Assembly (NCBI RefSeq): GCF_058153355.1
Contig: NZ_JBLWLY010000002.1
DNA length: 64,000 bases
Source of the DNA: a plasmid
Reading direction: 5' to 3' (one strand)
This document shows positions 43,101 to 49,100 of the stretch, piece by piece (within the stretch, counting starts at the first letter, position 1; each line of letters starts with the position of its first letter). A program made the position numbers.

Positions 43101-46100
43101 GCCGGAATGAAACAGACAGAATTTGCTGAAGTGGTGGGGGCTAGCGTTGACCTCGTGCGCAGCTGGGAACAACAACGGCGTATTCCCTCTGGTATTGCGT
43201 TGAAAATGTAATGAACGCATCCCACACAATTAAACACGGAGCAGTATGATGGTTAAAAGGGGGAAATTGGCAGGTGTGGAGCCTCGCAGATTTCCGGCAT
43301 CATAGTGCCCAATACGGGATGCATAAGCTCCCTCAGACTGGAAACTCCACGAATGAAATATACACCGGTTGGCGTTGATATCGCAAAGCATCTGATTCAG
43401 GTTCACTTCATCAATGAGCACACAGGTGAAGTGGTGGATAAGCGACTACGTAGCAGAGATTTTCTGACGTTCTTTACCGCGAACCCTGCCTGATTGGTAT
43501 GGAGGCTTGTGGAGGCTTGCAGCACTGGGCGCTGACAGCGCGTGAGCTGAAAAAACAGGGTCATAAAGTCCGGTTGTTGCAGGCCCGCTTTGTTAAGGCA
43601 TTCGTCATGGGCAATAAGAATGATGTGATGGATGCCCGGGCTATCTGGATGGCGGGTCAGCAGCCTGGTAAAGAAATTGCCGTAAAAACAGAAGAACAGC
43701 AGTCGGTACTGGTTCTGCACCGTTCCCGCATGCAACTGGTGAAGTTCCGGACCGCACAATTAATGCCCTGCACGGGACGTTACTGGAGTTTGGTGAAACC
43801 ATCCACAAAGGCCGGGCAGCGATGGTTCGGGAGTTCCCTGAAGCACTGGAGCGGATGAAAGAGAGACTGCCACCGCATCTCATCACAGTACTGGAAAACC
43901 AGTACAACAGTTTGAGTAAGCTGGATTCACTGATAGAGTGATATCGAAAAACAGCTTACCAGCTGTGGCGAAACAGAATGAAACCTGTAAGCGGTTGCTG
44001 GATATTCCCGGCGTTGCGCCACTTATTGCGACGACAGCGGTGGCCACCATGGGGGAAGCATCAGCGTTTAAATCAGGGCGAGAGTTTGCCGCATATGTCG
44101 GTCTGGTTCCAAAACAAACCGGCTCCGGAGGTAAAGTTCGCCTGCTGGGGATAAGCAAACGTGGTGACACTTATCTCAGGACATTATTTATCCACGGAGC
44201 AAGAGCGGTGGCATTAGTAGCTAAAGAGCTTGGCCCGTGGATAACCGAACTGAAAAAACGTCGTCCGGCCAGTGTGACAATCGTCGCCATGGCAAACAAG
44301 CTGGCACGAACAGTATGGGCGATAACCGCCCATAGCCGTAAGTATGACAGGAACCATGGTAAGCGGCTCGCCAGAACCGTATTGATATTTACTGAGAGCT
44401 CAGATCAACTTTCCAGGGCAACAGATCGCGTACCCGGTTTGCCGGCCAGTCCTGGATATGCTCAATGACGTAACGCAGCCATTTTTCTGGCCCCACATTG
44501 TTCAGACGGCATGTGCCGATCAGCGAGTACAACACCGCCGCATGTTCGCCACCGCTGTCGGAACCTGCGAGTCGAGTCAGCCGGAGAGAATTTCACTCCC
44601 CGGCTGCTCACGGAACCGTACGTGACACTCTCGCGTCATACGGCTCTTGATCACTCATTTGATGCACGTAGTAAATACCAGTGAACAAATAGCTTCGGAT
44701 ACTCCTTCCTTACCAGCGTCAGCTTTCGCTGAGCCTTCCGGTTCGAAAGTCTGTATTTAGACTGCATCCACTTGAGCAGACGTGACTGCATTGCACTCCA
44801 CAGTCGATAGTTGAAATTTCTGGACCAGAACTTTCCGTAGTACTCGATCCAGCCTCTCACTATCGCATTGTAGCGCCTCGCAAAATCCAGCAAACTCTCA
44901 GCTGTTGAGCGATGTATACGCCACTTCTTGATTGTTTCTGTTATTTTGCGCATTGCTGCATTTGACGCACCCGGCATGCATTTTCGGTACAGTTCGCCTT
45001 TGAAATTCTTCAGCGTACGCACTTTGAAGTCATATCCGAGAAAGGTGAAACTCGTTGCGACGTTTCTCCTTTTAAACGTGTCAATGTAGGCGATATTCGT
45101 TTTCCCTGCATTCAGGACCAGCCCGACTTCCGAGAAGCGCTCCGATAACCTGTTCTTCAGCCTTGTTGCATCACTCATTCGTGAACAATGTACTACAATA
45201 TCGTCAGCGTACCTCTCAAACGGTACCCCCCGATATTCTCTTTCCATCCACAAATCAAATGCATAGTGAAGGAACAAGTTAGCAAGTAGTGGACTAATGA
45301 CCCCGCCCTGCGGAGTGCCTCGTGTTCGGGTTATTAATTCTCCATTTTCACAACTCTGCATTGGCGCTTCCATCCAGCGTCGACAGTACAGGATGACCCA
45401 TTTAGGCATCCCGTGGTGTTCCAGAGCTTTGAGCACCAGATCATGTCTCACATGGTCGAAAAACGCACTGATGTCCACTTCCAGTATCCAGCTATAACGC
45501 CAGCACCGGATGGCACATTGTTTCAGAGCGTCATGAGCTGATTTGCCTGGTCGGTAACCATATGAATCAGCATGGAAAATCGGGTCAAGCTTTTCTTCCA
45601 TGAAAAGTTTTATCGCTCCCTGAGCAATTCGATCGGATACTGTTGGGATCCCCAGAATGCGTTCCTTGCCATTCGACTTCGGGATCCGTTTTTCCAGCAC
45701 TGGTGGCGGAAACCATGTTCCCGAACATAGCCGGTTCCAGATCTTGTATAGATTGCCATCACGTTGCTGGTCGAACATTTTCAAAGTCTGCCCGTCGCAT
45801 CCGGGGGCTCCCTTGTTGCGACGCACATCCAGATATGATGCCCAGACCAGTGCTTTTGGTATTTCAAATGATTTTCGTTGCATCAGTTACGTCATCCCCT
45901 TTTGGGTTGTGTCTTCTGCAATGAATGTGATCCCCATCCCTTCGCTCCAGACCCATTACAGATCTTTCATCACTACTACGAATGGGTCCGCCCCTGTTTC
46001 CCGATACGTGCCGGAAACAGGTTCTCACGTTCCCTGAGATGGTCTGGCCCGGGATCCTGCTGCCTTCACACCGGATGCCGCGCAGTCAGTAAGCAGGTGT

Positions 46101-49100
46101 CTTCTGCGCTTATCAGGGGACGGCTGTACGGCCCCATTTTGACATCATCTAAGATTTCGATGCTTCATCGGACAGTTTACTTTCGTTCAGCTTCCCGAAC
46201 CCCACGTGACAGTAGATCTCTGCCTTTTCCCGAGTCGCTCACCACCTCATTCCTTAGAATGAAGCAGCACCGGGTCGTTTGGTCAGTGCTCCTGTAAACC
46301 CTGACCGGAGGGCCCACCTCCACCCACCTCAGAGCATGGATAACTTATGCTGCAATTTTCACATTGTTGCCATAAGTACTCCTTCGTGACACACAGAGCC
46401 AGTTTTTCCGGCCTACGGCCACTCCCCGTAAGGCGTTCTCTGCGATGTTGTTGTCGATTTCCACCCAGCCATTACTGCAGTACACGTTCAGTGCATCCCA
46501 CTGTTTCAGCAGGTATGCGAACGCTTTTGCCGTGTCCGAGTGACGCGACAGTGTTTTCATCTGTTGCTGTATCCAGTCATACAGTGACTGCATCAGTGGC
46601 GCGGCTCTGGCTTTTCTTGCCGCCAGACGCTGTTCTGCTGAACAGCCCCGGACCTCTGCCTCGATGGCATACAGTTCACCGATACGCTGCAGGGCTTCCG
46701 TGGTGATGTCGGTGGGCACTCTTGCATGCACATCGTGGATTTTTCTCCGGGCATGAGCCATACATGCGGCTTCCGTTATTCTGCCGGATTCGTACAACGC
46801 CCGGTAACCACCGTAAGCATCGGCCTGAAGCACTCCGCTGTAACCGGCCAGATGATTCTGTGGATGGATACCTTTCCGGTCCGGGCTGTACGCGAACCAG
46901 ACCGCCGGAGGCATTTCCGAACCGGCGTTACGGTCATCACGAACGTAGACCCACAGCCGGGCAGTCCTTGTTTTACCGCTGCCCGGCTCCTGGACCGGAA
47001 CGGGGATATCATCGGCATGGACTTTACCGGGCATCAGCACATACTGGCGCAGGATGTCATACAGCGGTTCCAGCAGTTCAGCAACAGCACCTGTCCAGCG
47101 CCCCAGTGTGGCACGGCTCAGCTCCACGCCCTGACGACGGTATATTTCTGACTGGCGGTATAACGGCAGATGGTCTGCATATTTTCCAGCGACAACATGG
47201 GCCAGAAGCCCCGCTCCGGCATAACTGCGTGCAATGGGTTTTGAAGGCACCGGAGCCTGCACGATATGGTCGCACCGGCAACAGGCCAGTTTCGGACGTT
47301 GTGTTTCGATAACCTTAAAGGCGCTGCTGATAAGCTCCAGTTGCTCTGACACATCACATCCCAGAGAACTGAGTTCGCCACCACAGGCCGGGCAGCATTC
47401 CTCTTCCGGACGGATGACCCGGGTTTCACGGGGAAGTGAGGCAGGTAACGGTTTACGGGCTGAAGACTGGCGCAGGGGAGATGGCAGTACCGGGTCATAT
47501 TGCTCACCCAGCGTTTCCGCCATTTCTTCCTGAAGAGCGCTGATTCGCTCCTGTGCTTCCTGTATCTGCCGTTCGGTTTTTGCACGAAGTTTTTCTGAGC
47601 TTTTACCGAACTGCATGCGCTGCAGTTTTGCAACCAGCGCCTTCAGCCGGTTGATTTCGGAAGCATAAGCCGCCACCCGCTGTGAGAGCAGGCGGTTGTA
47701 TTTCGCCATCTGGCGGATGGTGTCCTGTTGCGTCTGCAACAGTGCCCGCAGGCGGGCATTCTCATGAGCAAGTGAGGTGTCCATATCCTCACTTTACAAC
47801 GGGTTATATGCGGATGCCAGCGCGTTCCGTTCGTTTCGGGTGTTTCCAGTCGATGCCCTCAAGAAGCATGGATAACTGGGCCGGAGTAAGGTGCACCTTG
47901 CCGTCACGGGTGACCGGCCAGACGAAGCGGCCCCGCTCCAGGCGTCTGGTGAAGAGGCACAGTCCGTCACTGTCAGCCCACAACACTTTTATCTGGTCAC
48001 CCCGGCGTCCGCGGAAGATGAACAGATGCCCGGAGAACGGGTCATCCTTCAGGACGTTCTGAACTTTTGAGGCCAGGCCGTTAAAGCCATTTCGCATATC
48101 GGTGATACCTGCAACCAGCCAGATACGCGAACCTGCAGGGAAAGATATCATCAGTGGCTACTCCCTTTTATTTCGCGGATAAGTATCTGTAATAACGCCA
48201 GCGTCAGTTTACCTTTAAGCCTGAGAGTTCCGGCCGGCAGAACCAGCTCACAGCACAGACTGTCGGACGGTGTATTTATCTGCTCTGGTTCCTGTGCCGG
48301 AGCCGGGATTTTATTATCCGGCTCCGGCGTTAACGTCACGGGAAGCAGTGCAGGCATATTTTTTCCGGAAGGCAGCAGGCCACCTTTCCGGTATTGATAG
48401 CGCCAGTTGAAGAGCAGGTTATCGTTGATTCCGTTTTCACGGGCGATCTGCGCCACACAGGCTCCGGGCTGCAGTGACTGCTCCACTAAGGCGATTTTAA
48501 ATTCATAAGGAAAATTAGGCCGCCGGGGACGTTTTTTTACCACCGGGAGTTTGGGCATAACGGTGCTTTCAGTAAGTACGACAGGTACTGTGGAGGCCCT
48601 TCCGTAAAGAAGGGCATCAAGTTCCTGCTCCGACATACCTGCGGGCAGAGGCCATGAAAGGCCAGCGTTGCGGAAGCGCACGAACATACCACAGACAGTT
48701 GATTTTGGTACGCCCAGGCGACGTCCGGCCACAACCCGTGGTAAATGTTCTTCGAAATGAAGGCGTAAAGCTTCAGTGATCCAGGATCTGGGGCGCAGTT
48801 CAAAAATGATGGACATTATTTTTGTGGAACCGGAGGTAACAGACCAGACGGTTTAAATGAGCCGGTTACACTTCTGTTGTATCCAGATACGCTAATCGGG
48901 CTGCTCAACTTGGCATAAAGCAATGACCCTTACCTACAGTATGGGATGATACAAAACTAAAACATGCGTTCCTTCAGACTCAGGTTAAGATGAAGAAACA
49001 TTCACTCCTGACTGGGCTACGGAACACCGGGAACTGCGTAATAAATGCGTGACGCTGCAGCTACTTTGGGAAGAATACTGTGAGCGTGATCCAGACGGTT

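Follow-up and report, generated by a model that had tools for sequence, protein, structure and literature searches.

A full-length E.c.I3 group II intron in the tnpC gene of an IS66-family element on a plasmid

Background

RmInt1 (Sr.me.I1) of Sinorhizobium meliloti is the model class D, or IIB3, group II intron. Sr.md.I1 of S. medicae, Pa.de.I1 and a Methylocystis intron are also of class D, and they have been recorded inside IS66 transposase ORFs. In E. coli, the intron concerned is E.c.I3. Shigella virulence plasmids are known to carry decayed copies of it. The name comes from Dai and Zimmerly (2002), as catalogued in Leclercq and Cordaux 2012 (PMC3522654), where the supplement labels E.c.I3 'D'. 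NC_008253:4007952-4009775, from E. coli 536, is listed there as E.c.I3-2b, a class D intron homing into IS679 (PMC3522654). IS679, the homing target of E.c.I3, is an IS66-family element (PMC3522654).

The window is a 64,000-nucleotide stretch of plasmid DNA (contig NZ_JBLWLY010000002.1, assembly GCF_058153355.1). The source plasmid carries ospD1 and ipgB2, and an autotransporter gene is found where sepA might be expected. F-type tra RNAs are also present on the plasmid.

An earlier note, made from the sequence alone, described a group II intron with an intact RT/maturase inside an IS66 tnpC gene. Every structural claim holds, and the element is one already known. The window intron is equal in length to the E. 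coli 536 copy, shares its exon junction, and differs from it at 19 of 1,824 positions. It is E.c.I3, already catalogued in E. coli and Shigella, and is not a new element; this identification rests on Leclercq and Cordaux 2012 and its supplement (PMC3522654). The discovery value is small, as E.c.I3 and its homing site in IS679 have been catalogued since 2002. The overall reading is that a full-length, apparently intact E.c.I3 occupies its canonical IS66 site, that tnpC is probably inactivated, and that the intron was most likely placed there by recombination; its probability is put at about 0.88.

Host element and insertion site

The intron lies in an IS66-family element on the minus strand (44359-48869; about 2,687 bp without the intron). 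The right terminal repeat, GTAAGCGGCTCGCC, ends at 44359, and the left end, GTAACCGG..., lies near 48869. Gene order (tnpA-tnpB-tnpC), a DDE_Tnp_IS66 transposase and GTAAGCG-type terminal repeats all place the element in the IS66 family, and homologues of its ORFs are annotated as IS66 tnpA, tnpB and tnpC. The variant in the window shares only 97% identity with IS66 elements of complete E. coli genomes. On the minus strand, tnpA spans 48151-48816 and tnpB spans 47804-48151; tnpC is split into exon 1 (46395-47784) and exon 2 (44389-44570). If left unspliced, exon 1 would yield a truncated 479-aa product with an intron-encoded end. Joining the exons gives a 523-aa TnpC which differs from the uninterrupted copies by one residue; on paper, splicing would thus restore the transposase frame, as had been proposed. 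For annotation, the tnpC fragments flanking the intron are one gene. Some records also annotate small antisense 'hypothetical proteins' within the intron, which are probably spurious.

Comparison of the region with the rest of the window by BLAST reveals a 1,824-nt insertion at 44571-46394 (minus strand) that is absent from two other IS66 copies, A and B, in which tnpC is uninterrupted. Positions 44359-44570 align with 11115-11326 (copy A) and 29171-29382 (copy B); positions 46395-48468 align with 11327-13400, and 46395-48150 with 29383-31138. Because the alignment blocks abut, both empty copies are contiguous exactly where the third carries 44571-46394. The flanks are therefore colinear with uninterrupted tnpC, and the search for an empty target site that the note suggested finds two in the same window. 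The junction reads ...CTGGCTCT / GTGTGT...CTCGAC / TCGCAGG, with zero shared bases that would permit a shift. The block does start with GTGTG, and its bounds, set by the empty sites, are exact; the RNA termini (5' GUGUG, 3' ...CUCGAC) fit the group II pattern GUGYG / AY. The intron is in the sense orientation, on the same strand as tnpC. It is inserted after the first base of a Phe codon, in a conserved motif of the IS66-family transposase.

The insertion is not attributable to chance. Either an assembly error or coincidence would have to have produced junctions which are identical in dozens of independent complete genomes and plasmids, and which recur at the homologous codon in metagenomes; the probability of such an artefact is negligible.

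Ribozyme structure

The block has the complete six-domain architecture of a group II intron, supported by covariation, with domains I-IV radiating from a central wheel. Domains I to III come from an RNAalifold consensus of ten relatives. Domain I (intron nt 1-370; 46025-46394, minus strand) is closed by a helix in which alignment columns 6-10 pair with 369-373, and it contains many compensatory pairs. Domain II (nt 371-405; 45990-46024, minus) has 12 pairs, 6 of them compensatory, and domain III (nt 409-462; 45933-45986, minus) has compensatory changes in 9 of 16 pairs. In total there are 133 pairs in domains I-III, 60 of which show double compensatory changes. Paired cells make up 97% of the total, as against 36-44% when the partners are slid. 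None of 500 shuffles paired as highly, a comparison which favours the fold, as the alignment tested is also the one from which the structure was obtained.

Domain V (44613-44646, minus) is a 34-nt hairpin with an AGC triad, a 2-nt bulge and a GAGA loop; it forms 14 pairs, and the terminal pair covaries between C-G and G-C. Domain VI (44573-44610, minus) forms 15 pairs, 6 with compensatory changes; its bulged A at 44577, which lies 7 nt from the 3' splice site, is the branch point. Domains V and VI together have 29 pairs, 7 of them compensatory. The domain V-like end quoted in the note is present, and the covariance-model check that it proposed gives two Rfam matches above their gathering thresholds: RF00029 at 44571-44648, covering domains V and VI (57.1 bits, threshold 40, E = 1.4e-8), and RF01999, group-II-D1D4-2, at 46205-46321 in domain I (91.9 bits, threshold 36). 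Every consensus helix and all catalytic RNA features are intact in the window copy.

Intron-encoded protein

Domain IV encodes an intact 410-aa intron-encoded protein (IEP; 44651-45883, minus) with RT and maturase (X) domains and the YADD motif that had been noticed. It matches TIGR04416 with 393.9 bits (cut-off 300). RVT_1 (1e-40) and GIIM (5e-14) are the only domains found in it; there is no D/En endonuclease domain, and the protein ends 25 aa past domain X. The ORF has no lesion. It differs from the E. coli 536 copy by 3 aa, and its exact sequence recurs in public assemblies. Identity is 47% to the RmInt1 IEP as against 33% to a Klebsiella plasmid ltrA. The C-terminal motif of class D is LX3AX3PXLF[V/A]HW (PMC4615759). 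The corresponding stretch in the window protein, LTLVRKEYPKLFVHW (L-TLV-R-KEY-P-K-LFVHW), matches at all motif positions except one, where A is replaced by R. E.c.I3 is of class D (IIB-type, RmInt1-like) on the basis of the literature, this motif and the similarity to RmInt1.

Exon recognition

The exon-binding sequences (EBS) were located by alignment with RmInt1. EBS1 is assigned to a conserved hairpin loop, GUAYAGCC, because this loop is homologous to the EBS1 loop of RmInt1; the sequence is 5'-ACAGCC-3' (intron nt 268-273; 46122-46127, minus). It forms 5 of 6 pairs with IBS1 (GGCUCU; 46395-46400), with a C.C mismatch at -2, and pairs perfectly with the ...GGCUGU exons of other copies, such as L004. 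A complementarity scan of the single sequence had offered two other EBS1 candidates, GGGGCCG (nt 260-266) and GGGCCAG (nt 345-351); both were rejected, as their bases lie in covarying helices of the relatives.

EBS2 (5'-UCUU-3', nt 241-244; 46151-46154, minus) aligns with the RmInt1 EBS2, AUGAA. In relatives it covaries with exon positions -13 to -10 (UCUU/AAGA, UCGA/UCGA and UCCG/CGGA). In the window IS it stands opposite AAAA (IBS2, 46404-46407), with a single C.A mismatch at -11. EBS3 is A329 (46066, minus), which lies in the coordination loop and aligns with G329 of RmInt1. The consensus fold leaves it unpaired, and it pairs with U+1 (IBS3, position 44570), which is the IIB type of 3'-exon recognition.

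Empty sites and a remnant copy

The empty homing sites lie on the minus strand at 11319-11334 in copy A (junction 11326/11327) and at 29375-29390 in copy B (junction 29382/29383). Copy A matches the occupied site exactly at IBS1, IBS2 and IBS3. Two identical empty sites persist 15 and 33 kb from the intron.

A remnant of a second, diverged intron copy lies on the plus strand at 37730-38061, together with the IS66 3' exon up to the terminal repeat. What is left of the intron is its final 120 nt (domains V and VI; 37730-37849), with RF00029 scoring 56.5 bits at 37772-37849; upstream, the remnant is cut by other sequence. The remnant is 95% identical to 44358-44690 in inverted orientation, and the stretch is also found in Shigella sonnei pINV. 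The arrangement of the window as a whole was not matched in PLSDB or in complete E. coli records.

Distribution and relatives

Of 5,426 complete E. coli genomes, only 47 carry E.c.I3 with both exon junctions; the query has matches in about 2,800, which are presumably due to its IS66 flanks. Several copies elsewhere show decay: L004 has an internal stop, and the pINV copies have deletions. In these truncated copies of Shigella pINV, intron nt 1-36 are missing, as is part of tnpC. The 36-nt 5' gap in most Shigella matches was considered as an alternative 5' end and rejected; it is a deletion which joins mid-tnpC to intron nt 37.

Eleven distinct relatives with 70-79% IEP identity come from Pectobacterium, genomes of marine Gammaproteobacteria and assorted metagenomes. 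Apart from one ectopic copy, all are inserted between the first and second bases of the Phe codon in G[RK][KRS]NW[LM]/F. Near the insertion, the host transposases share only 25-53% identity with one another, and the EBS2 of each relative tracks the upstream codon. A long-standing specialisation of the lineage on a single position in IS66-family transposases is suggested tentatively, and is on balance doubtful. If true and undescribed, it would be a clean case of a bacterial retroelement that persists by targeting the best-conserved motif of a different mobile element.

Origin of the window copy

The two exons diverge unequally from the empty copies. The 5' exon is free of mismatches over 1,856 nt when compared with copy A and over 1,588 nt when compared with copy B, whereas 7 sites differ in the first 110 nt of the 3' exon. 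This asymmetry is a signature which points to recombination and away from retrohoming in place. Two of the 3'-exon variants, +11 and +32, are common to every other intron-bearing allele examined. A matching 8-bp target duplication was not seen at the two flanks of the intron-bearing IS, which would fit recombination between IS copies and has no bearing on what the intron is. The tnpA ends of the three IS copies in the window are unrelated.

The note had read the insertion as retrohoming into an IS. For the lineage this is correct, because the intron is at the canonical site with EBS/IBS pairing; for the window copy it runs against the recombination signature. An intron from another replicon might have reverse-spliced into a sibling of copies A and B, and the canonical site, the pairing of EBS1, EBS2 and EBS3 with the target, and a 5' exon identical to the empty copies all agree with this. 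However, both exons should then resemble the siblings, whereas the 3' exon differs at 7 of 110 nt as against 0 over at least 1,588 nt upstream; the two shared variants tie it to intron-bearing alleles of other strains, and both sibling sites are still empty. Retrohoming in place is thus improbable. Judging by the exon sequences, the intron most likely arrived in its present context when IS66 copies underwent homologous recombination or gene conversion. Import of the intron with its 3' flank, or later homogenisation of the 5' exon, may each have left the same pattern. If the lineage is indeed such an IS66 specialist, the intron-linked 3'-exon haplotype would suggest that E.c.I3 spreads by recombination between IS copies and not by retrohoming alone.

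Splicing, mobility and effect on the IS

We infer the splicing, mobility and priming mode of E.c.I3, as well as its recombination history. The intron would be transcribed within the tnpA-tnpB-tnpC message. The IEP would be translated from domain IV, bind the intron RNA and aid its folding, and the ribozyme would be excised as a lariat via the bulged A. The lariat-protein particle would then reverse-splice into DNA with suitable IBS2-IBS1/IBS3 sequences, for which the ideal target is predicted to be AAGAAC UGGCUGU/U. Because the IEP has no endonuclease, cDNA synthesis is expected to be primed by the nascent strand at the replication fork, as has been demonstrated for RmInt1.

In RmInt1, the best-studied relative, exon joining in vivo reaches only about 0.07% (PMC3123198). 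By analogy, the insertion probably acts mostly as a knock-out of the intron-bearing tnpC copy, with a trickle of spliced mRNA at most. Efficient excision could instead keep the transposase working and gate IS66 transposition. The sense orientation and exact restoration of the frame would suit such control, as would insertion in the catalytic-motif region, where an active enzyme would need precise splicing; exon joining in RmInt1, the closest studied relative, is nevertheless at that low level, and RmInt1 behaves like a retroelement rather than a spliced intron. Splicing-dependent control is very unlikely.

The EBS1 and EBS2 mismatches and the two persisting empty sites would fit low or no mobility here. 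The copy may even be an intact-looking passenger which neither splices nor moves, and which persists only because its host IS is non-essential, present in several copies and carried by a mobile plasmid. The empty sites beside the intron, the guide-sequence mismatches, the many decayed copies elsewhere, the small share of complete E. coli genomes with both junctions and the extinction dynamics that have been argued (PMC3522654) agree with this. Against it stand the lesion-free 410-aa ORF, the intact catalytic RNA features and helices, and the recurrence of the exact protein in public assemblies; a wholly inactive copy is a serious possibility, though the less probable one.

Comparison with known systems

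The window is chiefly a specimen: an intact intron in a full-length IS, with two identical empty sites and one decayed remnant. It is a natural test-bed for the mobility of E.c.I3 and for the limits that guide mismatches set on site occupancy.

RmInt1 resembles the window intron in many respects. The ribozymes are colinear, with EBS2, EBS1 and EBS3 at homologous positions; the EBS2 and EBS3 published for RmInt1 correspond to UCUU and A329. The RmInt1 IEP likewise has RT and X domains only, and RmInt1 also lives inside an insertion sequence. However, it is 1,884 nt long as against 1,824 nt, and its domain II is longer. Its guide sequences and target (ISRm2011-2) differ; EBS3 is G, pairing with C+1, whereas the window intron has A. 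The mobility of RmInt1 is experimentally proven, whereas E.c.I3 is known here from sequence. Sr.md.I1 is 88% identical to RmInt1 and so belongs to a different sub-lineage from E.c.I3, with different guide sequences. E.c.I4 is another intron of E. coli and Shigella which is specialised on IS transposase genes, but it is of class A, is about 2.27 kb long and targets the IS3 family (IS629/IS911). The catalogued copy of E.c.I3 is alike in its 1,824 nt, its insertion at the same point of tnpC, its 410-aa IEP without an endonuclease and its class D assignment, and no essential difference separates it from the window intron. Unlike E.c.I3 in Shigella pINV, the window copy has its ORF and both ends intact, and its host IS is full length.

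Identity of the intron

On sequence, the 1,824-nt block at 44571-46394 (minus strand) is the group II intron E.c.I3, which is already known. E.c.I3-2b is listed as class D at NC_008253:4007952-4009775 (PMC3522654, supplement). This copy, from E. coli 536, has the same 1,824-nt length as the window copy; 19 nucleotides and three protein residues separate the two. Apart from A to R, the C-terminus of the intron-encoded protein (IEP), LTLVRKEYPKLFVHW, agrees with the class D motif LX3AX3PXLF[V/A]HW, and an identical 410-aa protein is already present in public assemblies. Among 5,426 complete genomes of E. 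coli, 47 contain the intron and both junctions. Most of the intron is also found in 143 plasmid records, the majority of which are Shigella pINV and match from intron nt 37 onward; in pWR501 this boundary is a deletion which fuses mid-tnpC to intron nt 37. These records agree with the E.c.I3 fragments known on the Shigella virulence plasmid; fragments are also known on an E24377A plasmid, and IS679 is the homing target (PMC3522654). The present analysis adds modestly to this: mapped guides with their mismatches, a signature of recombination and a hint of specialisation on an IS66 motif.

Ribozyme and intron-encoded protein

The earlier note described a group II intron with a 410-aa reverse transcriptase (RT), and made this reading dependent on the folding of domains I-VI. 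Both stand. Domains V/VI match Rfam RF00029 at 44571-44648 (minus strand; 57.1 bits, threshold 40) and domain I matches RF01999 at 46205-46321 (minus strand; 91.9 bits, threshold 36), and domains I-III, V and VI fold with covariation. With a score of 393.9 bits, the 410-aa ORF (44651-45883) exceeds the cut-off of 300 for the NCBIfam equivalog of group II RT/maturases. Its Pfam domains are RVT_1 and GIIM only; no endonuclease domain is present among them. Among proteins of solved structure, its best relatives are RTs of group II introns, GsI-IIC RT for example.

The RNA alignment was built from relatives gathered from public assemblies. The consensus fold (RNAalifold, ten sequences) begins with the closing helix of domain I and a multi-branched domain I, followed by domains II and III. 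It contains 133 pairs, in 60 of which pairing is kept through two-sided changes. On the consensus structure 97% of cells are paired; sliding the partners 1-3 columns lowers this to 36-44%. None of 500 shuffles reached the observed covariation; the test is favoured by the derivation of the structure from the same alignment, but the margin is large nonetheless. Domain V forms 14 pairs and shows the AGC triad, a bulge of two bases and a GAGA loop. In domain VI there are 15 pairs, of which six are compensatory, and the bulged adenosine, at 44577, is seven bases away from the 3' splice site.

Public records annotate a 'hypothetical protein' of about 110 aa antisense to intron domains I-IV (4322-4660 in the pWR501 locus, 4164-4501 in the E. 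coli 536 locus and 6664-7058 in L004, another E. coli copy). Their equivalents in the window, including a plus-strand ORF at 45878-46297, are unlikely to be genes.

Insertion site and host gene

There are three IS66-family elements in the window, all in the same orientation: copy A (11115-13700), copy B (29171-31639) and the intron-bearing copy C (44359-48869). A 61-nt fragment of an IS66 right end is found at 31650-31710. When 44000-49300 was compared with the window by BLAST, 44359-44570 matched 11115-11326 and 29171-29382, 46395-48468 matched 11327-13400 (98.5%), and 46395-48150 matched 29383-31138 (99.8%). These alignment endpoints show that A and B are contiguous exactly where C holds the intron, as expected from the colinearity with uninterrupted tnpC which the earlier note had observed; the empty target sites that it proposed to look for are present at 11326/11327 and 29382/29383. 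On the minus strand, the 5' junction reads ...CUGGCUCU followed by GUGUGU, and the 3' junction reads ...CUCGAC followed by UCGCAGG. Both are sharp, with no shared bases to blur them. Read unspliced, tnpC enters the intron and reaches a stop after 479 aa; joined, the exons encode a 523-aa TnpC which differs by one residue from the uninterrupted copies, so the frame is regained as had been predicted. The earlier note was correct in both observation and interpretation.

History of copy C

The two exons of copy C differ in their relationship to the other copies. In the 5' exon, no base differs from copy A over 1,856 nt or from copy B over 1,588 nt. Seven substitutions relative to both copies lie within the first 110 nt of the 3' exon (44461-44570; 11217-11326 in A and 29273-29382 in B), at +5, +11, +23, +32, +79, +89 and +110; past +110 this exon is identical up to the terminal repeat. 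The variants at +11 and +32 are common to every other intron-bearing allele examined, all of which are from other strains. No target duplication was found at copy C when its flanks were compared.

The earlier note proposed retrohoming into an IS. This holds for the lineage, in which the site is canonical and EBS/IBS pairing is found. However, an in-place retrohoming event in a sibling of copies A and B leaves the asymmetry of copy C unexplained, with no differences in at least 1,588 nt on one side and seven in 110 nt on the other. The simplest reading is that homologous recombination or gene conversion has taken place among IS66 copies, the intron marking one boundary of an exchange tract. The intron may have been imported along with the adjoining part of the 3' flank; alternatively, the 5' part may have been homogenised later.

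The tnpB-tnpC segment is identical in all three elements. Beyond tnpB, their tnpA regions and left ends are unrelated, as are the TnpA proteins (203, 142 and 221 aa). The three elements are mosaic, which implies homogenisation by recombination.

Other features of the window

Part of a second E.c.I3 copy survives at 37730-38061 (plus strand); it ends abruptly upstream at 37729. What is left is the last 120 nt of the intron (37730-37849; domains V and VI, 95% identical, where domain VI contains compensatory differences), together with the IS66 3' exon and the terminal repeat. The same stretch is present in Shigella sonnei pINV, as is a stretch annotated there as ospD1 and ipgB2 which the window also holds. 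As a whole, the window resembles a virulence plasmid of the invasion (pINV-like) type. Features of this kind, at 31873-35985, 38236-38811 and 39910-40587, are a 1,370-aa putative autotransporter ORF and the ospD1-ipgB2 stretch. F-plasmid RNAs are also found: sok, the traJ 5' UTR with FinP, and AS-pc02 (19396-19565; 23568-23677; 57610-57797). The arrangement of the window has no counterpart among PLSDB records or complete E. coli genomes.

A perfect inverted repeat of 1,254 nt is located at 36187-37440 and 56309-57562, with a further 285-nt repeat copy (37157-37441 and 63441-63725). Presumably the repeats represent an IS3-family element, and 36231-37049 contains a transposase-like ORF of 272 aa. 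The DNA between repeats of this kind can be inverted or deleted.

The lineage and its IS66 site

Relatives of the intron (loci L005-L024, 70-79% IEP identity) come from Pectobacterium, marine Gammaproteobacteria genomes and metagenomes. With one exception, they are located at the homologous codon of IS66 transposases, in the motif G[RK][KRS]NW[LM]F, where they split the Phe codon behind its first base; the window counterpart is 46395-46407 and 44570. Flanks are replaced or truncated in two relatives (L008/L009 and L018). The exception, L015, is an ectopic insertion between clpB and a flavodoxin-like gene, at a sequence resembling IBS1. In the 100 residues before the insertion codon, the host transposases share 25-53% mutual identity (leaving out L018, in which the upstream flank is truncated). 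In full-text literature searches, a few introns of class D were recorded with IS66 as host gene, and no explicit description of clade-wide conservation of the site was found. There is a hint in these sequences that the whole E.c.I3 lineage may specialise on one conserved IS66 motif.

Proposed mechanism

Judging from its class, the intron would be transcribed as part of the tnpABC message. The IEP, translated from domain IV, would help folding, and the intron would be released as a lariat via the A at 44577. The lariat-protein particle would then reverse-splice into single-stranded target DNA. Because the endonuclease is missing, cDNA synthesis would probably be primed by the nascent strand at the replication fork. 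Nascent-strand priming is established for RmInt1, the Sinorhizobium meliloti class D model intron. In vivo, RmInt1 joins only ~0.07% of exons (PMC3123198); therefore, the net effect on the host IS is likely to be loss of transposase from copy C.

Exon recognition in comparison with RmInt1

RmInt1 (S. meliloti pSymB, L014:631-2514) aligns colinearly with the window intron, and its guides are published: EBS2 AUGAA, the EBS1 loop and EBS3 G329 (PMC3123198). Initial EBS1 candidates from a single-sequence scan were wrong and were replaced by the loop mapped from this alignment. EBS2 of the window intron is UCUU (intron nt 241-244), and the EBS1 loop is GUACAGCC, with ACAGCC at intron nt 268-273. 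Exon positions -13 to -10 covary with EBS2 among relatives; the EBS2/exon pairs are UCUU/AAGA in L006, L008 and L016, UCGA/UCGA in L018, and UCCG/CGGA in L019. In the window, EBS2 has one C.A mismatch against AAAA because the Lys codon is AAA, not AAG. EBS1 has a C.C mismatch against GGCUCU at -2, the wobble base of a Leu codon; in L004 the exon ends in GGCUGU and pairs perfectly with EBS1. The native site thus reads AAAAAC UGGCUCU|U, and the predicted ideal target would be AAGAAC UGGCUGU|U. The empty sites in copies A and B match the occupied one in IBS1, IBS2 and IBS3, and are still intron-free. EBS3 is A329, aligned to G329 of RmInt1; the window intron pairs A329 with U+1, just as RmInt1 pairs G329 with C+1.
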